A stretch of DNA of 64,000 nucleotides from Eubacteriales bacterium (GCA_045653945.1 JAZOML010000033.1:8798-72797); one strand, 5' to 3'. Counted from the stretch's first letter, positions 1 to 50,580 are shown. Program-made: numbers and translations. Notes: generated from the sequence alone by a model not told the origin.

Positions 1-589
1 AGAAAAGCTCGGTGTGATAGGTAAATACCGATACGTTATAGTTAGCTTTGGCGGTAGCCTTGGTGCTAAAACCGTAAACGATATAGCACTTAAAACAATG
101 GTGAAGCTAAGCAGTAAGCGTAGCGACGTGCTCCACGTTCACTCCTGCGGAAGGGCATGCTGTGCGGAGTTTTTCACTGAATTTAAACGCTTGGGACTTG
201 AGGGATGTAAAAATATAAAAGCAAGTGAATATATATACGATATGCCACTGTACCTTAGCGCCGCCGATGCGGTAATCTGCCGTAGCGGAGCTATGACACT
301 ATCCGAAATTGCGGCGGCGGGCGTTCCGTCGGTGCTTGTGCCATCGCCAAACGTTACCGCTAATCACCAATACGAAAACGCTCTTGAATACTCAAACGTC
401 GGTGCGGCGTTTGCCGTTGACGAAAAGGAATACGGTTCAACGGATAAAGCCTTTGAATACGTCAGCGCCCTTATAACCGAGCCGTCTTTACGCAAAAAAA
501 TGTCCGAAAACGTGCGGAAACTTGCTTGTATAGACTGTGCCGAGCAAATTGTAAAAGAGATTGTATCCTCAATAAAAAAAGAACGCTGA
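1..589 (+). CDS. murG: MurG undecaprenyl-PP-MurNAc-pentapeptide UDP-GlcNAc transferase, C-terminal part (5' end lies outside the window)
   Basis: The frame stays open back to the window edge. GGSLGA and RSGAMTLSEIAAAGVPSVLVPSPNVTANHQYENA match the GT28 C-terminal UDP-GlcNAc-binding region. Confidence 0.85.
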   Translation, partial: EKLGVIGKYRYVIVSFGGSLGAKTVNDIALKTMVKLSSKRSDVLHVHSCGRACCAEFFTEFKRLGLEGCKNIKASEYIYDMPLYLSAADAVICRSGAMTLSEIAAAGVPSVLVPSPNVTANHQYENALEYSNVGAAFAVDEKEYGSTDKAFEYVSALITEPSLRKKMSENVRKLACIDCAEQIVKEIVSSIKKER

Positions 590-3397: not shown

Positions 3398-3510
3398 AGA
3401 TATACCTTGATATACAGTATATAAACTTTTAATATTTATTCAATTATACAACATCTTGTGGTAAAAGTCAAGTAAGAAAAGAATAATTTTATACAAAGTT
3501 TACAATGTTT

Positions 3511-3702
3511 TTGAGGTTGGTAGGGACACGTTGCGACGAGCTTGAAATCCACAGAGAGAGGTGCGATGGCTGAAAGCACCTTGTTTTTGAACGGCGCGAT
3601 ACCACCTTATTGTTAATTTGATATCCAAATGAGTTAAAAGCTCGGGTGGAACCGTGTGAATTATTTGCACCCCGACAATGTTTTGTCGGAGTGCATTTTT
3701 TT
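3511..3702 (+). promoter_or_regulatory. T-box leader (tRNA-Thr sensing) with intrinsic terminator
   Basis: Elements occur in canonical order: AGAGAG bulge (3553-3558), GGTGCGA distal loop (3560-3566), GAA-AGC-ACC specifier region with Thr codon ACC at 3578-3580, and T-box sequence GGGTGGAACCGTG (3644-3656). A terminator stem GCACCCCGACA/TGTCGGAGTGC follows, then T7 (3667-3702). The element lies upstream of thrS. Confidence 0.8.
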
Positions 3703-3883
3703 GTACCGTCTGTTAAAATTCCGTAATACTTTGTTGCTTCCTTGGCAGCGGCTCGACTTACACTAAAGTAAGCCTTCGCCTTGCTACCTACGTTGCGCCT
3801 CGTCTTTCGAAATTTTTCCTAGACGGAATGTGCGTTTTTTGACGCAGTCAAAACAGTAAAATTAAATTTTGGAGGATATAAAA

Positions 3884-5767
3884 ATGACGGCTTACGAAGT
3901 ATTAAGAAGCAAGGAGCTTATGCAAAGAAGTGTAATCGGTGCTCTTGTAAATGGAGAGGTAGCAGAGCTTACCGCAGAGGTAGCGGACGGAGCAGAGGTA
4001 ACTCCTCTTACCTTTGAGGACGCAGAGGGAAAGAAGATTTTTTGGCATACCGCATCTCATATTCTTGCACAAGCAGTAAAGAACCTTTACCCCGATGCAA
4101 AGCTTACCATCGGTCCCTCTACCGATAGAGGATTTTACTACGATATCGATAGAGATACCCCCTTTACCAACGATGAAATAGCGGGTATTGAGGCTGAAAT
4201 GACCAAGATAGTCAAGGCAGACTATAAGATTGAAAGATTTACTATGCCCCGTGATGAGGCAAAGAAATTTATGGAAGAAAAGGGTGAGCCTTATAAGGTG
4301 CTCTTAATTGACCGTGTTCCCGAGGGCGAGGAGATTTCCTTCTATAAGCAGGGGGATTTCGTTGACCTTTGCGCAGGTCCTCACCTTTTCTCAACCGGAC
4401 TTGTAAAGGCATTTAAGATTTTGCAAATTACAGGTGCATATTGGGAGGGCGACTCCAAAAACAAGGTTCTTCAGAGAATTTACGGCGTTGCATTTCCTAA
4501 AAAAGACGAGCTTGCCGCTCACCTGCTCCAGCTTGAAGAGGCAAAGAAGCGCGACCATAATAAGCTCGGACGCGACCTCGAAATATTTACCACCGTTGAC
4601 GTTATAGGTCAGGGACTCCCGATACTTCTTCCTAAGGGCGCAAAGATAATCCAAACGCTTCAAAGATGGGTTGAGGACGAGGAATATAAGAGAGGCTGGC
4701 TCCCCACTAAAACTCCGTATATGGCAAAGCGTGAGCTTTACAAACTTTCGGGACACTGGGATCACTACCTTGACGGTATGTTCGTTCTCGGCGACCCCAA
4801 TGACGAAACCAAGGAGTGCTTTGCACTTCGCCCAATGACCTGTCCTTTCCAATATCAGGCTTACCTCAACAGAGCTCGATCCTACCGTGATTTGCCGCTC
4901 CGCTATAACGAAACCTCGACTCTTTTCAGAAACGAGGATTCGGGAGAAATGCACGGACTTATCAGAGTTCGCCAGTTCACCATTTCCGAGGGACACCTTA
5001 TGTGCCTTCCCGAACAGCTTGAAGAAGAATTCAAGGGCTGCCTTGAACTTGCAATTTATATGCTCAAAACCCTCGGACTTTACGAGGACGTTTCCTATCG
5101 CTTCTCGCAGTGGGACCCCAATAACCGTGAAAAGTACATTGGCACTAACGAGCAGTGGGACGAGGCTCAGGGTATAATGAAGAAAATACTTGATAACCTC
5201 GAAATTCCTTATAAAGTCGGTGTTGGTGAGGCGGCGTTCTACGGACCTAAGCTTGATATTCAAATCAAGAACGTTCACGGCAAAGAGGATACCCTTATCA
5301 CTATTCAAATAGACCAGCTTCTTGCTGAAAAGTTCGGTATGGAGTACACTGACCGCGACGGACAAAAGAAGAATCCTTACATTATCCACAGAACATCTAT
5401 CGGATGCTACGAAAGAACCCTTGCGCTTCTTATCGAAAAGTACGCAGGTGCGTTCCCGCTTTGGCTTGCTCCGAATCAGGTAACCGTTCTCCCCGTATCC
5501 AACACCTATGACGAATACGCCGAAAAGGTTGTATCCGCTCTAAGAGCTGTCGGTATCAGATGCGAGCTTGACAACAGAAACGAAAAGATAGGCTACCGCA
5601 TAAGAGAAGCAAAAATGTCTAAGGTACCTTATATGCTTATTCTTGGCGAGAGGGAAGCAAACGAGGGCACCGTTACCACCCGTAACCGTAAGGACGAGAG
5701 CGAAACCCTTACCGTTGACGAGGTAGTGGCAAAATTCCTGAAAGAGATTGCTGAAAAGGCAAGATAA
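3884..5767 (+). CDS. thrS: Threonine--tRNA ligase
   Basis: 627 aa with TGS-like N-terminus, second additional domain, class II core (FRNEDSGEMHGLIRVRQF, GEAAFYGPKLD) and anticodon-binding C-terminus. I prefer ATG 3884, which has GGAGG 8 nt upstream, over the track's TTG 3869. Confidence 0.95.
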   Translation: MTAYEVLRSKELMQRSVIGALVNGEVAELTAEVADGAEVTPLTFEDAEGKKIFWHTASHILAQAVKNLYPDAKLTIGPSTDRGFYYDIDRDTPFTNDEIAGIEAEMTKIVKADYKIERFTMPRDEAKKFMEEKGEPYKVLLIDRVPEGEEISFYKQGDFVDLCAGPHLFSTGLVKAFKILQITGAYWEGDSKNKVLQRIYGVAFPKKDELAAHLLQLEEAKKRDHNKLGRDLEIFTTVDVIGQGLPILLPKGAKIIQTLQRWVEDEEYKRGWLPTKTPYMAKRELYKLSGHWDHYLDGMFVLGDPNDETKECFALRPMTCPFQYQAYLNRARSYRDLPLRYNETSTLFRNEDSGEMHGLIRVRQFTISEGHLMCLPEQLEEEFKGCLELAIYMLKTLGLYEDVSYRFSQWDPNNREKYIGTNEQWDEAQGIMKKILDNLEIPYKVGVGEAAFYGPKLDIQIKNVHGKEDTLITIQIDQLLAEKFGMEYTDRDGQKKNPYIIHRTSIGCYERTLALLIEKYAGAFPLWLAPNQVTVLPVSNTYDEYAEKVVSALRAVGIRCELDNRNEKIGYRIREAKMSKVPYMLILGEREANEGTVTTRNRKDESETLTVDEVVAKFLKEIAEKAR

Positions 5768-44408: not shown

Positions 44409-44653
44409 CTTTCCCTAAATTTCCCGAAAAGCCTTGATTTTCCTTAATATTTATGATATACTATGGACAGAAAAACTAAGGTATACCCGAAAGGAGAATT
44501 AGCGTGAAGTTAATTTGGTCGAAAGTCTGAAATTTGTTTTTCACGCTATGAATTTCCATAAAAAATTAAACATTTTTTGTTTTGCTCTGCAAAACACTGA
44601 AAATTCGCCAAGTATTGGTGCAGTTGCCTGACGGCAACGGAAAGGAAAGAATT

Positions 44654-46408
44654 ATGTTTACTTACACAAGAGATGAAATAAAAGCGGCGCTTGACGCAGG
44701 CAGCAAGGACGCGCTTAAAATAACCGATGCCAAGATTGCCGAAATGAAGGCAAATCCGCAGCTTAAATTTGCTCACGGTCGCCTTGCAGAGTGTCGCGAG
44801 TTTTACGGCAAAATGGAAATTCCGAGCATTTCGTTTACGCAGTTCAACCGTTTCTACGTAGACGGCGACAGAGCCGCTTATGAAAGAGAATACTTCCGCC
44901 GCCGCGGACACCTCAAAACGTGGGCAATCTCTCTCTTATTTGATAAGGAAAACAAGGAATACAAGCAACGCCTCGAGGACACCATCTGGGCAATCTGCGA
45001 CGAATTTACTTGGTGCTTGCCCGCTCACTACCACCTCGACGTGCACGAAATTGACCTTTTCGGTTGTGAAACAACCGGCGCACTTGCCGAGGTAATCTTC
45101 CTTGTGGGCGACCTGCTTCACCCGTGGGTAGTAGAAAGAGCGAAAAAGGAGCTTATGCGCCGCGGAATTGAACGCTTTGAGGAACACACCGACAGCGAAT
45201 TCCTTTGGGCTGATCCTGCAAGAAGACAGGGTAACTGGACAACCGTTTGCTCTGGCTCGCTCGGTATTGCCGCGATGTGTATGCTCGACGATAATGACCG
45301 ACTTGCAGATATGCTTGCTCGTATAAATAAAATAATGGAGCTTTACTTTGCCGCTTACCCCGACGACGGTGCATGCCCCGAGGGATTTGGCTACTGGGGT
45401 TACGGCTTTGGCTTCTTTACCGCCTACGCCGACACACTTTATAAGCGTACAAACGGTATGGTTAACCTCTTTAAATTTGAAAAGGTTCGCCTTTTTGCTT
45501 CTTTCCCTGCAAAGCTGCTCTTTGACGGCAGCAGATGCGTGGCGTTCTCCGACAGCGGTAGCTATGGCGGAATGTCGCTTTCGCTCACCTCGGCGCTCAA
45601 GCAGTACTACCCCGAGCTTTATATCCCCTCAACCACCAACTTCGGTTGCGATATCGAGGTCGAGGGCTGCCACCGCTTTACCACCAACCTTCGCACGTTA
45701 ACTTGGGTTGCGGGCGAGCTTGAAAAGGAAGAGGCAGGTGCAAAAACATATATTCTTGATAAGGTACAGTGGTATATTTCCTCAAGTGCCGATAAGGTGG
45801 GATTTTGTTGTAAGGCAGGTCATAACGACGAGCACCACAACCACAATGACGTCGGACACTTCCAAATATTCAAGGCGGGTGAGGAATTCTTTGCCGACTT
45901 TGGCGCAGGTGTTTACAGCGGACCGTACTTCGGTAGAGAACGCTACACCTTTATTCAAGCGGGCTCGCAGGGACACAGTGTTCCGATAATCAACGGCAAA
46001 TATCAAAAATTTGGTAAGGAGTACGCCGCAAAGGACGTTTTGTTTAGCGACGAGGGTATGATAGCCGATATTTCGGGCGCATACGCCATTGACGAGCTGA
46101 AAACTCTTAACCGTACCTTTAAATTTAATAAGGAAACCTCTACCGTCTACGTAAAAGACGAGTTTGAGCTTGCAGGTGATAATATTCCCGTAACCGAGCG
46201 ATTTGTTTCGTGGAAGAAGCCCGAAATCACTGACGGAAAGGTAACACTTACTGCAAAAAACGGTATGTCGATGTCGCTTTACTTTGATGCAAACGTATTT
46301 GACGCAAGCTTTGAGGCTATCGACTCGGGCAAGGGAACGGTTTACGTAACCGACCTTGCAGTAAAAGAGCCGAGAGCAAATATGACGGTAGAATTTGAAA
46401 TCAAATAA
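44654..46408 (+). CDS. Heparinase II/III-like (polysaccharide lyase-like) protein
   Basis: An alpha/alpha toroid-like N-terminal half, then a beta-rich half with HNDEHHNHNDVGHFQIF, the histidine cluster typical of the Hepar_II_III family. I prefer ATG 44654 (GGAAAGGAAAG Shine-Dalgarno). Confidence 0.6.
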   Translation: MFTYTRDEIKAALDAGSKDALKITDAKIAEMKANPQLKFAHGRLAECREFYGKMEIPSISFTQFNRFYVDGDRAAYEREYFRRRGHLKTWAISLLFDKENKEYKQRLEDTIWAICDEFTWCLPAHYHLDVHEIDLFGCETTGALAEVIFLVGDLLHPWVVERAKKELMRRGIERFEEHTDSEFLWADPARRQGNWTTVCSGSLGIAAMCMLDDNDRLADMLARINKIMELYFAAYPDDGACPEGFGYWGYGFGFFTAYADTLYKRTNGMVNLFKFEKVRLFASFPAKLLFDGSRCVAFSDSGSYGGMSLSLTSALKQYYPELYIPSTTNFGCDIEVEGCHRFTTNLRTLTWVAGELEKEEAGAKTYILDKVQWYISSSADKVGFCCKAGHNDEHHNHNDVGHFQIFKAGEEFFADFGAGVYSGPYFGRERYTFIQAGSQGHSVPIINGKYQKFGKEYAAKDVLFSDEGMIADISGAYAIDELKTLNRTFKFNKETSTVYVKDEFELAGDNIPVTERFVSWKKPEITDGKVTLTAKNGMSMSLYFDANVFDASFEAIDSGKGTVYVTDLAVKEPRANMTVEFEIK

Positions 46409-46461
46409 ATAAATAAATAAATAAATAAATAAACGAGGTCGATGACCTCGTTTATTTATTT
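46402..46461. repeat. (AAAT)7 microsatellite merging into an 18-bp perfect palindromic bidirectional terminator
   Basis: AAAT x7 (46402-46429) overlaps the TAA stop at 46406-46408. AAATAAATAAACGAGGTC-ga-GACCTCGTTTATTTATTT forms the terminator stem. Confidence 0.85.
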
Positions 46462-47295
46462 ACCGTCTATATTTTCTTTTGCAATTCTACCGTCCTTAAG
46501 AAGTGAACGAAGAGTGTCCTTATCGCCGTTTGCGATGGCATTGCGGTAATCGCTTAAATTCTTTATTATAGTGTCAATTTCAAACAGAAGTGGTTCTTTA
46601 TTTTCAAGAAAAAGCTCTGACCACATATTTTCATTTAACCACGCAACACGGGTTAAATCCTTGTATGAGCCTGCCGAAAAGCCCTTGTGTACCTTTGCGG
46701 TAGGACTTTTTACGTAAGCGTTTGAAACTATGTGCGCAAGCTGAGAGGTAAACGCAATTATCCTGTCGTGTGTGCTTGCATCGGTTACACTGATTGAACC
46801 AAAGCCGCAGGGCAAGAGTATTTGCTTTATGCTGTCAAGAAATTCAATATCATCGTATTTTGGCGGTACGATAACCATAGGTGCGCCCTTGAAAAGCTCT
46901 GCACTTGCGTACTTAAATCCCGAAAGATGCTTTCCTGCCATCGGGTGTCCGCCGACAAAGGTAAAGTCATACTTTTCAGCAAGGTCAAATCCTATCTCAC
47001 AAACCTGCTTTTTTGTGCCGCACAAATCCATTACAAATTGTTTTTTTGCAAATACGTTGGCGTAATTTTGCAAAAAATCCACCGTTGCCTTTGGGTATAT
47101 AGCAATAAAAATTGCATCGCACGTAGTAATTGTTTTTTCATTTAAAATCCCGTCAACTACACCCGATAGCTGCGCAAAGCCGAGTGTGGTTGCATCGCTA
47201 TCAAACGCAAAAATCTCACATTCGCAATTTTTTCTAAATGCCTTTGCTACCGAGCCGCCGATTAGCCCAAGCCCGACAATACCAATTCTTTTCAT
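46456..47295 (-). CDS. tyrA: Prephenate dehydrogenase
   Basis: IGIVGLGLIGGS Rossmann motif, HPMAGK catalytic motif, and a C-terminal PDH dimerisation domain. Confidence 0.9.
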   Translation of the reverse strand: MKRIGIVGLGLIGGSVAKAFRKNCECEIFAFDSDATTLGFAQLSGVVDGILNEKTITTCDAIFIAIYPKATVDFLQNYANVFAKKQFVMDLCGTKKQVCEIGFDLAEKYDFTFVGGHPMAGKHLSGFKYASAELFKGAPMVIVPPKYDDIEFLDSIKQILLPCGFGSISVTDASTHDRIIAFTSQLAHIVSNAYVKSPTAKVHKGFSAGSYKDLTRVAWLNENMWSELFLENKEPLLFEIDTIIKNLSDYRNAIANGDKDTLRSLLKDGRIAKENIDGK

Positions 47296-47305
47296 ACGCT
47301 TTACC

Positions 47306-48307
47306 TCATTTTATAGCTACAAGCACTTTATTTACTGCACACACAACCTCGTCAAATTGCTCGGGAGTGAGGGACTGAGCGCCGTCGCAAAGAGCATTTT
47401 TGGGGTCATTATGCACCTCTATCATAAGTCCCTTTGCGCCGCAGGCTGCAGCAGCAAGAGCCATTGGACGAACGAGTCTTGCCACACCCGTTGCGTGGCT
47501 AGGGTCAACGATAACGGGTAGATGCGTTAACTCCGAAAGAACGGGAACGGCGGATAGGTCAAGCACGTTACGGGTGTAATTGTCGTAGCTTCTGATACCT
47601 CTTTCGCAAAGGATAATATTTTCTTTTCCGCCCGCCATAATGTATTCGGCGCTCATTAAAAATTCCTTTAAGGTTGCCGCAAGACCGCGTTTGAGCAAAA
47701 TAGTCTTTTTGGAGCGTCCAAGCTCCTTGAGTAACTCAAAATTTTGCATATTTCTTGCACCAATCTGCAAAATATCAACGTCTGAAAACAAATCCAGATG
47801 AGATGCGTCCATAATTTCGGTTACTACGGGCAGTCCCGTAGCTTTTTTTGCCTTTAAAAGAAGCTCAATTCCCTCGCTCTTAAGTCCTTGGAAATCGTAA
47901 GGTGAGGTTCGCGGTTTAAAAGCGCCCCCACGAAGTATCGTTGCACCGGATGCTTTGACCTTAGTTGCTATTTCGGTAAGCTGCTCCTCGCTTTCAATAG
48001 AGCAGGGTCCTGCCATAATAGAAAAAGTGTCGCCTCCAACTGTGGTATTATCAACCTTAATTACGGTATCGTCGGGATGAAATTTCCTGTTTGCACTTTT
48101 GAACGGCTCGCTTATACGCTTGACGCTTTCTACCATTTCGAGGCTTTCGAGCAGGTCGGCATCCACCCTTGCGGTGTCGCCTATAAGACCTATAACCGTT
48201 TGAAATTCACCGCGTGAGATGTGCACGTCAAGATTCTGGTTTTTAAGCCAAACGGTAAGGCTTTCGATTTGTTTTTCGGTTGCTCCGTGTTTTAAAACTG
48301 CTATCAT
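47306..48307 (-). CDS. aroF: 3-deoxy-7-phosphoheptulonate (DAHP) synthase, type I-beta with an N-terminal ferredoxin-like regulatory domain
   Basis: KdsA-like core with GPCSIES, LRGGAFKPRTSPY, IGARNMQN, KRG and DPSH motifs, preceded by a regulatory domain of about 70 aa as in Thermotoga-type DAHPS. Confidence 0.9.
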   Translation of the reverse strand: MIAVLKHGATEKQIESLTVWLKNQNLDVHISRGEFQTVIGLIGDTARVDADLLESLEMVESVKRISEPFKSANRKFHPDDTVIKVDNTTVGGDTFSIMAGPCSIESEEQLTEIATKVKASGATILRGGAFKPRTSPYDFQGLKSEGIELLLKAKKATGLPVVTEIMDASHLDLFSDVDILQIGARNMQNFELLKELGRSKKTILLKRGLAATLKEFLMSAEYIMAGGKENIILCERGIRSYDNYTRNVLDLSAVPVLSELTHLPVIVDPSHATGVARLVRPMALAAAACGAKGLMIEVHNDPKNALCDGAQSLTPEQFDEVVCAVNKVLVAIK

Positions 48308-48342
48308 TGTATTGTATCTCCTTTAAAAATCAAAATTAACGA

Positions 48343-48379
48343 AAAAAACAGCCCCGCAGTGTTCCTTACTGTGGGGCTG
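48343..48379 (-). terminator. Intrinsic terminator inside the aroF leader (attenuator)
   Basis: Minus strand reads CAGCCCCACAGT-aaggaac-ACTGCGGGGCTG (12 bp, one mismatch) followed by T7. It lies about 35 nt upstream of the aroF Shine-Dalgarno. Confidence 0.75.
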
Positions 48380-48423
48380 AAATTAATATCTATCAGAACG
48401 CAGCAAAAAGCACTATTACCATT

Positions 48424-48474
48424 TTAAAAATAGTAATAGTAGTAATATCCCTTTGCGTTTGCTCTTGTAAACAT
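48424..48474 (-). CDS. Candidate leader peptide MFTRANAKGYYYYYYF (16 codons)
   Basis: ATG 48474 has AAGGA 8 nt upstream. Six consecutive Tyr codons are followed by Phe, then TAA at 48426-48424. It sits between the promoter and the terminator upstream of aroF-tyrA. Confidence 0.6.
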   Translation of the reverse strand: MFTRANAKGYYYYYYF

Positions 48475-48520
48475 AATAAAAATCCTTTTCCTTTGACGGG
48501 GCTTTTATCCGTCTAAGGTT

Positions 48521-48549
48521 AATATAGCACTGTTTTGAAAATTTGTCAA
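48521..48549 (-). promoter_or_regulatory. Sigma-A promoter for the aroF-tyrA operon
   Basis: Minus strand reads TTGACA (48549-48544), 17 nt, TATATT (48526-48521). Confidence 0.65.
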
Positions 48550-48564
48550 GTGTTTTTTAAAAAT

Positions 48565-50580
48565 TTAAAACGGTTTTTTTGGCGGTTTGCCGTTGGGGAA
48601 AAACGGCGGCGGTGTAGCTTCAACGTGCTCGGAGTTTTCGATATAGCGCTTTGCCTGAGTGGAGAAGAGCGTATGGTACTTTCCTTTTGCTTCCATTAAC
48701 TCTTTATGGCTACCCTGCTCGATAAGCTCACCGTATTCAAGCACGAGAATTTTGTTTGCGGTTGTGGCGCTTGAAAGCCTGTGTGAAACGAAAATCGAGG
48801 TTTTATCCTTGCGGAGATGGTCAAATCTATTGAAGATTTCCTGCTCAGCCATCGGGTCAAGAGAGGCGGTAGGCTCGTCAAGGATAAGTATATCAGAATT
48901 AGCATAAAATGCTCTTGCGATAGAGAGCTTTTGCCACTGACCGATAGACGGTTCAATTCCGCCGTCCTCGAAAATTCTCATAAGAGGCGTATCGTATCCG
49001 TTGGGAAGCTTGGTAATAAACTCATCAGCATCGCTCGCTAAGGCGGCATCAATCACTCTTTCATCGTCTAGCTGACCGTCAAAATCACCGAAAGCAATGT
49101 TTTCCTTTGCGGTTACGGCGTATTTGCCGAAATCTTGGAATATGATACCGAACATCGAATAAAGCTGCTCGACGTCATATTCTCTTATATCGTGGCCGTC
49201 AAGCAAAATTTGACCTTCGGTTGGGTCGTAAAGTCGGGTAAGCAGCTTAACAAGAGTGGTTTTACCTGCGCCGTTAAGACCTACAAGCACAACCGTTTCT
49301 CCGGGTTCGATTTTGAACGAAACGTTTTTAATTACATCGCGCTCGGTATCGGGGTATCTAAAGGAAACGTTTTTAAATTCAATAACGTGGGGAATTTGCC
49401 GCTCAGGAATTCTCGGCGTATCAATTATAGGCTTAATGGTTTGCTCTCGCTTCATAAATACAATCATATTGTCAATAAAGAGTGTGCCCTCGTAAATGGT
49501 AGCCGTTGTGCCTATAAGCGTTCCGACGCCCCCCGAAATCCCGCTTAGAGCCGATACGTAAAGCGAATAGTTACCTACAAGCACGTTGCCACTGCAAACC
49601 TGAACGGCAATATAAATAAGTATAGCACAGTTTGCCACAGCGTTAAGGACAGTCAAGGCGATATGCCAAAGTCCCTCGGTTACAAAGAGCTTTTTCAGAC
49701 CTTTAAAGTATCTTTTAAAGGTTTCCTTGTACCTGCCTATAAAGACGTCGGAAAGTGAAAACATTTTGATTTCCTTTACCATATCCTTGTTAGTTATGAT
49801 AGAGGAATAGTAGTTCATAACACGTCTATCCTTGGAGCGACGGCGAATATAGTCAGCATTTTTCTTGCGATATATAAAATTAATGATAGCGGAGGGAATG
49901 GCGAGAATAACGATTATTGCAGGAGCAAGTGGACTAACCGCAATAAGGACAACAACAAACGAAATTATAGTGATAAGCGTACTGAAAATCTTGAATGTGG
50001 AGTTCAGTATCTGAACGGGGCGCATACCTGCCTCGCGGTTTGCATTTTCAAGCTTTTCGTAAAATTCGGTGGTGTCAAAGCTTGCAAGATCGACGCTTTT
50101 CGCCTTATTCATTATTTTAAGCTTTATGTGGTTAACAACAAGCTCACCGTAAATTCGGGTGAGAATAGTGTCGATATTTGTAATAATACTTTTTGCGAAG
50201 GTGAAAATAAGCTGAATAACAAGCCAAAAAATTATTGCTTTTCCTATATCGCTGGACATTATGCTTGAAACCTGCTCGCCGATGGTAGCATCAGGCACGC
50301 TCACCTCACCAAACGCCGCCACAAGAGAATTCAAAATATTTGCTGTGATAGCAGCGCCAAGCACGGGGATAATACCGTTGAATATTGCCATAAAAACCAT
50401 AACAAACAGTATCCAAGGTCCTGTTTCCCAAACCAGACCGAAAATATAAAACAGGCGCGAAAAGAAGCCTCCGAAAAGCGTTTTAAGGAAAGATGGAACT
50501 TCCTTTATACTTTTTGGAAGTGGTGGCTTTAATTTGTCATTTCCGCCTCCGAAGGGCGGGCCCATAAATCCGGGTCCCAT
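48565..50580 (-). CDS. ABC transporter ATP-binding/permease fusion protein (exporter type)
   Basis: Six-TM exporter domain, then an NBD with GLNGAGKTT, LSIGQWQK-type signature and ILILDEPTASLD. Gly/Pro-rich N- and C-terminal tails. Confidence 0.85.
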   Translation of the reverse strand: MGPGFMGPPFGGGNDKLKPPLPKSIKEVPSFLKTLFGGFFSRLFYIFGLVWETGPWILFVMVFMAIFNGIIPVLGAAITANILNSLVAAFGEVSVPDATIGEQVSSIMSSDIGKAIIFWLVIQLIFTFAKSIITNIDTILTRIYGELVVNHIKLKIMNKAKSVDLASFDTTEFYEKLENANREAGMRPVQILNSTFKIFSTLITIISFVVVLIAVSPLAPAIIVILAIPSAIINFIYRKKNADYIRRRSKDRRVMNYYSSIITNKDMVKEIKMFSLSDVFIGRYKETFKRYFKGLKKLFVTEGLWHIALTVLNAVANCAILIYIAVQVCSGNVLVGNYSLYVSALSGISGGVGTLIGTTATIYEGTLFIDNMIVFMKREQTIKPIIDTPRIPERQIPHVIEFKNVSFRYPDTERDVIKNVSFKIEPGETVVLVGLNGAGKTTLVKLLTRLYDPTEGQILLDGHDIREYDVEQLYSMFGIIFQDFGKYAVTAKENIAFGDFDGQLDDERVIDAALASDADEFITKLPNGYDTPLMRIFEDGGIEPSIGQWQKLSIARAFYANSDILILDEPTASLDPMAEQEIFNRFDHLRKDKTSIFVSHRLSSATTANKILVLEYGELIEQGSHKELMEAKGKYHTLFSTQAKRYIENSEHVEATPPPFFPNGKPPKKPF

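Follow-up and report, generated by a model that had tools for sequence, protein, structure and literature searches.

Two predicted 'aromatic amino acid attenuators', both found from Clostridium novyi, have been reported (Stav et al. 2019, BMC Microbiol 19:66, PMC6429828). The first of these, uORF-13, whose type locus lies in Clostridium novyi NT (NC_008593.1/2309418-2308872; PMC6429828, Additional file 3, Table S1), comprises 336 examples from Firmicutes (Clostridiales and others) and metagenomes, about half of them located 5' of aroF, with tyrA the next commonest gene and in the same operon; its short ORF, with an F-Y-F consensus, lies inside stem P1 and is followed by a terminator, and an action like that of the trp attenuator was proposed (PMC6429828). 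The second motif also contains a Phe/Tyr-rich uORF, occurs in Firmicutes and is sometimes found 5' of shikimate-pathway genes, but it lies mostly 5' of amino-acid transporters, has a more complex structure and encodes its peptide immediately 5' of P1, as opposed to inside P1 in uORF-13 (PMC6429828). In Corynebacterium glutamicum (aroR/aroF), a Phe-Tyr-Phe leader peptide found by transcriptomics precedes a DAHP synthase gene and has been read as a ribosome-mediated attenuator (PMC4046766); it belongs to the Actinobacteria and has only three aromatic codons, and Stav et al. describe its peptide and RNA structure as different from those of the Firmicute motifs (PMC6429828). The Acholeplasma motif uORFC-13-1 places a uORF with Phe codons directly 5' of a terminator and aroF (Brewer et al. 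2021, PMC8632094) and occurs only in Acholeplasma and in unknown organisms from the environment (PMC8632094), its U-run encoding Phe whereas the leader studied here carries a Tyr run. Leader-peptide attenuators had been reported in Firmicutes before, in the form of His leader peptides in bacilli (PMC2965389).

The leader described here precedes an aroF-tyrA operon on the minus strand of a 64,000-nucleotide stretch of DNA from an Eubacteriales bacterium (GCA_045653945.1, JAZOML010000033.1:8798-72797; hereafter the window), and a preliminary description had proposed that it is a leader-peptide attenuator. With all computational tests run, that proposal is supported by the parts of the element, by their conservation and by covarying helices, and very probably the element is a classical ribosome-mediated transcription attenuator of aroF-tyrA that senses the charging of Tyr (and Phe) tRNA. 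Compared by description only, it appears to match all published textual features of uORF-13: it lies upstream of aroF with tyrA, and the related loci are Clostridia MAGs. Its aromatic codons are situated inside an outer helix (48456-48449/48410-48403) with the terminator after it, an arrangement that would fit stem P1 as described. Its near-pure Tyr run (Y6 F1) differs from the F-Y-F consensus, and an antiterminator pairing, absent from the published text on uORF-13, is defined here from an alignment of 32 leaders. The window fits uORF-13 better than the second motif of Stav et al., since the latter encodes its peptide before P1 and not inside it. By description, the element would stand at the Tyr-rich end of a class predicted earlier. 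The novelty implied in the preliminary description was overstated, as Firmicute leader-peptide attenuators (PMC2965389) and uORF-13 at aroF-tyrA (PMC6429828) predate it; both concept and class were already published as predictions, and what is added here is confirmation and detail of the mechanism, not a discovery. Our search of the literature found no experimental validation of the Firmicute aroF-tyrA attenuator class.

The pheL-pheA, trpL, hisL and thrL leaders of E. coli follow the same logic, with regulatory codons in segment 1, alternative 1:2, 2:3 and 3:4 helices and a terminator before the first biosynthetic gene, but they share no sequence homology with the leader in the window and come from a different phylum. 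To our knowledge E. coli has no leader peptide for tyrosine, and its aroF-tyrA operon is controlled by the TyrR repressor. The leader in the window, by contrast, would sense mainly tyrosine; such a Tyr-run leader would be a natural sensor of Tyr-tRNA charging, absent from the E. coli paradigm, and could be a good experimental model of a Tyr-sensing leader.

Searches of the window and of 20 related loci against Rfam 15 returned no family at gathering score. Sub-threshold matches to the element (trpB motif, 27.8 vs a gathering score of 59; Thr_leader, RF00506, 22.8 bits vs 55; Phe_leader, RF01859, 15.3 bits vs 55) rest mainly on the terminator and on a generic hairpin layout. The element is not a T-box, the T-box model (RF00230) giving no match in 48250-48620 even at E<=10 and none at gathering score in the whole window; the T-box earlier assigned to thrS was borne out weakly, its score of 27.3 bits falling short of the gathering score of 93. 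Neither the element nor the uORF-13 motif is listed in Rfam, the gene calls also lack the element, and the alignment, covariance model and antiterminator presented below are usable to annotate it.

The aroF-tyrA operon and its leader

The features of the operon and its leader are as follows.

48521-48549, minus strand: sigma-70-type promoter, with TTGACA at 48549-48544, a 17-nt spacer and TATATT at 48526-48521
48483-48487, minus strand: Shine-Dalgarno sequence AAGGA of the leader ORF, 8 nt 5' of the ATG at 48474
48424-48474, minus strand: leader ORF of 16 codons encoding MFTRANAKGYYYYYYF, with six Tyr codons at 48447-48430, one Phe codon at 48429-48427 and the stop codon TAA at 48426-48424
48342-48379, minus strand: intrinsic terminator, CAGCCCCACAGU (48379-48368) paired with ACUGCGGGGCUG (48360-48349), loop AAGGAAC and U7 at 48348-48342
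47306-48307, minus strand: aroF, type I-beta DAHP synthase (PF00793, DAHP_synth_1, 7e-77; PF18152, 3.6e-23)
46456-47295, minus strand: tyrA, prephenate dehydrogenase (PF02153 and PF20463, PDH_N and PDH_C), second and last gene of the operon

Pfam agrees with the gene content first read from the stretch, DAHP synthase and prephenate dehydrogenase, and the operon consists of aroF and tyrA only, since a convergent gene follows tyrA. Translation of aroF would start from the Shine-Dalgarno sequence AAAGGAG at 48324-48318, and its product carries an N-terminal ferredoxin-like regulatory domain (PF18152). Domains of this type mediate allosteric feedback in related DAHP synthases. From the domain match alone, the enzyme encoded by aroF would also be subject to allosteric feedback, in which case attenuation would be the transcriptional layer of a two-level feedback.

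Direct reading of the minus strand bore out both the TTGACA-17-TATATT promoter and the 16-codon Tyr-run ORF with AAGGA 8 nt upstream that had been noticed initially. The promoter matches the consensus at 11 of 12 positions in a promoter scan and has an extended -10 TG at 48529-48528, inside the 17-nt spacer; promoters of the form TTGACA-N17-(TG)nTAnAAT are found at a comparable distance in six relatives (L001, L002, L003, L032, L073 and L081). A leader RNA of ~170 nt would result, and the minimum free energy (MFE) of a 216-nt leader is -58.5 kcal/mol (z = -4.8 vs shuffles). This 5' leader contains a short ORF with its own ribosome-binding site and start codon, and the ORF holds a run of codons for the amino acid that the pathway itself makes (Tyr x6 plus Phe x1, ahead of a DAHP synthase and prephenate dehydrogenase operon). 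In most relatives a GGAG/AGGA-like sequence is likewise present ahead of the leader ATG.

Downstream of the leader ORF and ahead of aroF lies an intrinsic terminator. A 12-bp GC-rich hairpin followed by T7 had been described at this position; the hairpin and the T7 are there, but the stem consists of 11 bp and one A.C mismatch instead of 12 perfect pairs, with a dG of -18.6 kcal/mol. A simple terminator scan of the window missed the terminator at 48379-48342.

Conservation of the leader among related Clostridia

The comparison covered 80 genome and 80 metagenome loci with the closest DAHP synthases (63-79% identity), and the genome and metagenome scans yielded no relative above ~79% DAHP synthase identity. 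Nearly all of these loci come from Clostridia MAGs labelled Oscillospiraceae, Lachnospiraceae, Ruminococcus or Acutalibacteraceae. Most of the ~150 related Clostridia loci contain a Tyr/Phe-rich mini-ORF with an ATG start and a Shine-Dalgarno sequence 70-190 nt 5' of aroF, encoding peptides such as MFTRNYAAEYYYYYYSKKSNSDFCCGKI, MNKLFATAYYYYFFSREKR and MKNMLFAFAYFYFYFYF. When an aromatic mini-ORF is defined by an ATG start, a length of 6-60 codons and at least six aromatic residues per window of eight, such ORFs are present in 62% of 144 windows upstream of aroF, whereas among 2242 control windows taken from these loci the figure is 0.04%. The loci that have none are mainly Bacteroidaceae-labelled contigs and those in which aroF is operon-internal (e.g. 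behind pheA).

A MAFFT alignment of 32 leaders, including that of the window and made with no structural input, revealed strong conservation at the nucleotide level and gave the consensus UUUGCAGCnGnAUAUUAUUACUUUUACUUU ... AAAAGUAAnAGUGAUUUUUGCUGCAAA ... spacer ... CGCAGUgAAA..CACUGCGG..UUUUUU. The covariance model built from this alignment matches 52 of the 80 genome loci and, in a second mixed set made up of 64 loci and the window, 55 of the 65 sources. Within the window it occurs as a single copy, the seed itself, with next-best matches at E>0.04, and every match in the related loci (~0.5 Mb searched) is on the aroF strand and directly 5' of aroF. In most leader-bearing related loci tyrA directly follows aroF, while the gene 5' of the element varies among loci, which argues that the element belongs to aroF-tyrA. 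The related loci also hint that the ratio of Tyr to Phe codons may go with the presence of tyrA or pheA.

Alignment of the aroF upstream regions of related Clostridia, proposed in the preliminary description, thus found the mini-ORF, its reading frame and the hairpins conserved, and the helices covarying. The parts of the element, their order, their conservation and the three competing helices described below are established by the sequence and its comparison with relatives. Where T-box and TRAP systems are commonly cited for Firmicutes, a leader peptide instead appears to govern both shikimate-pathway entry and the tyrosine branch in many gut Clostridia.

Competing helices in the leader RNA

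Three segments of the leader take part in the helices; the terminator 3' arm serves as segment 4.

48428-48456, minus strand: segment 1, comprising GCAAAGGG (48456-48449) and the Tyr/Phe codon stretch UACUAUUACUAUUU (48441-48428)
48401-48424, minus strand: segment 2, comprising AAAUGGUAAUAGUG (48424-48411), CUUUUUGC (48410-48403) and UUUUUGCUG (48409-48401)
48363-48380, minus strand: segment 3, the terminator 5' arm and loop, including CAGUAAGGA (48371-48363), which pairs with 48409-48401

Helix 1:2 in the window has 14 bp (48441-48428/48424-48411), in which AAAUGGUAAUAGUG pairs with the Tyr codons, and a further 8 bp (48456-48449/48410-48403), in which CUUUUUGC pairs with GCAAAGGG. The 8-bp pairing ACTATTAC/GTAATAGT recognised at the outset is real and forms a portion of this longer helix. 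Across the family, helix 1:2 joins the aromatic codons and a preceding GCAGC box to segment 2, where nucleotide conservation within the family is highest (consensus AGUAAnAGUGAUUUUUGCUGCAAA). In the 32-leader alignment 83.8% of its cells are paired vs 34-57% in shifted registers, and its covariation score was reached by none of 500 shuffles. At one of its column pairs, which holds the middle base of an aromatic codon, UA occurs 14 times and AU 10 times among the sequences; the codon switches between Phe (U) and Tyr (A) with compensation in segment 2, so selection maintains aromatic identity and pairing alike.

Helix 3:4, the terminator, is paired in 88.5% of cells vs 32-45% in shifted registers, with compensatory changes at eight of nine pairs and a covariation score that was again not reached in 500 shuffles; its stem and U-run are kept with compensatory changes in nearly all relatives. 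RNAalifold applied to the same alignment recovered the terminator alone. Helices 1:2 and 2:3 were defined by column-pair scans of the alignment, a choice that carries some selection bias, mitigated by the shifted-register and shuffle controls.

Helix 2:3, the antiterminator, uses UUUUUGCUG (48409-48401), for which segment 3 is the alternative partner. In the family it is formed by the 3' half of segment 2 (UUUUUGCUGC) and the top of the terminator 5' arm and loop (GCAGUGAAA); 83.6% of its cells are paired across the 32 leaders vs 34-61% in shifted registers, both-sided changes occur at six of ten pairs, and the covariation score was reached in 0 of 500 shuffles. The terminator loop is conserved in sequence because this helix extends into it. 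The window forms nine of the ten antiterminator pairs in the family register, with further pairs between C48373 and G48399 and between UCAG (48380-48377) and CUGA (48396-48393).

Helix 2:3 was also checked outside the 32-leader alignment by calculating segment 2-segment 3 duplex energies for each sequence, which replaced a fixed-column test on an alignment derived from the covariance model, where GCGGCACAG-type terminators, being paired in another register, made fixed columns unsuitable. The mean energy of these duplexes is -13.7 kcal/mol, and in 58% of 62 loci they are more stable than shuffled sequences (p<=0.05). The duplex of the window (-10.5 kcal/mol, z = -0.2) is by itself not better than shuffles, and the window's antiterminator is credible through homology to the family register, not through energy. 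An earlier test in which segment 3 was the terminator 5' arm only (window -5.4 kcal/mol; family mean z -1.2) underestimated the pairing because the conserved pairing reaches into the terminator loop.

The search for mutually exclusive terminator and antiterminator structures, by folding and by the 32-leader alignment, thus arrives at three competing helices, 1:2, 2:3 and 3:4, with the regulatory codons in segment 1, and the evidence for them is strong at the family level. The preliminary description had seen no convincing antiterminator; a pairing does exist, between 48409-48401 and 48371-48363, and it covaries in the family.

Mode of action and alternative explanations

The element most likely switches the operon on when charged Tyr-tRNA is low, a response to tRNA charging that we infer from the trp/phe/his paradigm. 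Where charged Tyr-tRNA is plentiful, the ribosome would translate past the Tyr codons as far as the stop codon (48426-48424), directly adjacent to segment 2. That segment would be covered, or taken back by segment 1 into the highly stable helix 1:2, and with the 3:4 terminator formed, transcription would stop at ~48342. When charged Tyr-tRNA, or to a lesser extent Phe-tRNA, is scarce, the ribosome would stall at 48447-48427 and occupy segment 1, so that segment 2 could pair with the newly transcribed segment 3; with 2:3 formed there would be no terminator and RNA polymerase would read into aroF-tyrA. An element of this kind may serve in engineering as a tyrosine-responsive part.

A ribosome positioned on the stop codon at 48426-48424 covers the RNA to ~48412 only and leaves 48409-48401 unmasked, so where the stop codon comes early, as in the window and certain other members of the family, termination would have to rely on ribosome release and a timely re-formation of helix 1:2. 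Elsewhere in the family the ORF continues across segment 2, giving SNSDFCC in the peptide, and there masking of the classical kind would apply. Also counted against the proposed mechanism is the moderate stability of the antiterminator in the window (-10.4 kcal/mol as a hairpin, -8.5 kcal/mol for the duplex alone) vs -18.6 kcal/mol for the terminator.

Among the alternatives, it is improbable that the mini-ORF senses Tyr-tRNA but acts on mRNA stability or on the translation of aroF, with the hairpin and U7 being mainly a structural or processing element. The end of the terminator is located 41 nt 5' of the aroF ATG, the U-tract and the region downstream of it are weakly paired in folds of the full leader, and leader peptides that attenuate translation are known from Firmicutes, e.g. 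the erm leaders (cited in PMC2965389), all of which would suit such an output. However, the hairpin has the canonical form of an intrinsic terminator, a GC-rich stem followed by U7, and is conserved with compensatory changes; the aroF Shine-Dalgarno sequence falls outside the conserved helices, and the alternative helix competes with the terminator stem and not with the ribosome-binding site.

Control by a trans-acting factor, such as a TRAP- or PyrR-like RNA-binding protein that reads the UAC/UAU repeats or the 1:2 hairpin while the mini-ORF is incidental, appears very improbable. Protein-mediated attenuation is known in Firmicutes, e.g. TRAP on the trp operon, the Tyr codons do repeat as regular UAY units, and helix 1:2 makes a long, stable hairpin. 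Yet what the family retains is the ATG, the Shine-Dalgarno sequence, the reading frame and the aromatic residues, not the nucleotide repeat: UAU, UAC, UUU and UUC interchange freely, and Phe/Tyr swaps are compensated in segment 2. Aromatic ORFs are moreover ~1000-fold enriched over the control windows, there is no linked candidate regulator gene, and the upstream gene varies among loci. The remaining explanation, a chance co-occurrence of an unrelated small ORF and an ordinary hairpin or terminator with no coupling between them, could draw on the ease with which AT-rich intergenic DNA gives TAT/TAC/TTT codons and short ORFs and on a 2:3 pairing that is not significant in the window by itself, but it is in effect refuted by the comparative data, that is by the fixed order and spacing across ~100 species-level loci, by the mini-ORF enrichment over control windows, by the covariation of all three helices and by covariance-model matches solely 5' of aroF in ~0.5 Mb.

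Apart from the three helices of the leader-peptide attenuator, one further structure is predicted close to the 5' end of the leader.

48495-48513, minus strand: small 5' hairpin (GACGG...CCGUC), present in the MFE fold and containing AGCCCCGU (48503-48496)

The preliminary description had put forward AGCCCCG, in this part of the leader, as a candidate antiterminator. In the window AGCCCCGU is indeed complementary to the terminator 3' arm GCGGGGCU (8 bp, -16.8 kcal/mol, z = -3.3), but complementarity of this type is not conserved across 92 relatives (mean z -0.09, with 3% below -2), and it was rejected as the mechanism of the family. It is probably not the regulatory pairing, and may represent either chance or a lineage-specific addition. 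There is a slight probability that this lineage has gained a second, translation-independent antiterminator, formed by the 5' AGCCCCGU and the terminator 3' arm GCGGGGCU, with AGCCCCGU normally sequestered in the small GACGG/CCGUC hairpin. Were this true, termination would hinge on the state of the 5' end, e.g. on ribosome loading at the adjacent Shine-Dalgarno sequence, in addition to stalling at the Tyr codons.

Codon pairing and stop position in the leader

The segment of the leader designated segment 2 can pair with the aromatic codons of the mini-ORF or, alternatively, with segment 3. In our structure-blind alignment of 32 aroF leaders (A1), columns 50 and 88 covary (UA in 14 sequences and AU in 10). 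Column 50 is the second position of an aromatic codon, where U gives Phe and A gives Tyr, and column 88 is the base opposite it in segment 2. Because this codon base changes together with its partner, the comparison shows that the aromatic identity of the peptide and the pairing of the RNA are under selection simultaneously. The conserved core of segment 2, GUAAUAGUG (A1 columns 84-92; window 48411-48420), also contains UAA and UAG in a single shared frame. The reading frame of a leader ORF therefore decides whether it ends no later than segment 2, which is the case in the window, or is translated across it as ...SNSDFCC.... The attenuator family thus falls into two classes by stop-codon position, with implications for the masking of segment 2 by the ribosome.

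The 5' end of the leader

The preliminary description had put forward the 5' end of the leader as a candidate antiterminator, and the complementarity itself was recovered: AGCCCCGU (48496-48503, minus strand) can form 8 bp with the 3' arm of the terminator (48349-48356), at -16.8 kcal/mol (z = -3.3). However, related loci lack an equivalent pairing: across the 92 compared, the mean z is -0.09. In the window, AGCCCCGU lies within a small hairpin:

48513-48495, minus strand: small GACGG/CCGUC hairpin containing AGCCCCGU

Operon content and boundary

Where aroF is not followed by a tyrA homologue (related loci L009, L010, L034, L067, L071 and L140), the leader tends to be dominated by Phe codons (F10 Y2 and F11 Y6, for example), and mixed or Tyr-rich runs are found in the leaders of loci with tyrA; one exception is L159, with an F12 Y1 leader despite tyrA. 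This trend hints that leader codon composition is tuned to operon content. The ferredoxin-like regulatory domain found at residues 1-67 of the window's DAHP synthase (PF18152, 3.6e-23; 47306-48307, minus strand) confers allosteric feedback by aromatic amino acids in related enzymes, and since the enzyme carries this domain, entry into the pathway is probably subject to two levels of control. A convergent gene marks where the two-gene operon ends; its sole match, at 24.5 bits, barely exceeds the cut-off of 24:

44582-46408, plus strand: gene convergent with tyrA, marginal heparinase II/III C-terminal match

T-boxes and unusual related loci

A T-box had also been proposed for thrS, a label that we retain as putative for the 632-aa ORF at 3869-5767 (plus strand). 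An Rfam match does lie upstream of it:

3462-3677, plus strand: weak T-box match

It scores 27.3 bits (E = 4.5e-4), below the gathering score of 93, and was not returned by the gathering-level search over the whole window. At the related locus L066, a full T-box (157-393, minus strand, 128.8 bits) lies a short way upstream of the aromatic leader, on the opposite strand.

At L065 the best aromatic mini-ORF is 379 nt upstream of aroF, far beyond the usual distance. DAHP synthases approximately 70% identical to the window's Clostridia enzyme were encountered on several contigs binned as Bacteroidota; those labelled Bacteroidaceae (L006, L011, L013 and L039) are without an attenuator leader, and the one labelled Alloprevotella (L014) matches the covariance model built from A1 at 41.6 bits. 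Mis-binning or horizontal transfer could account for these contigs.
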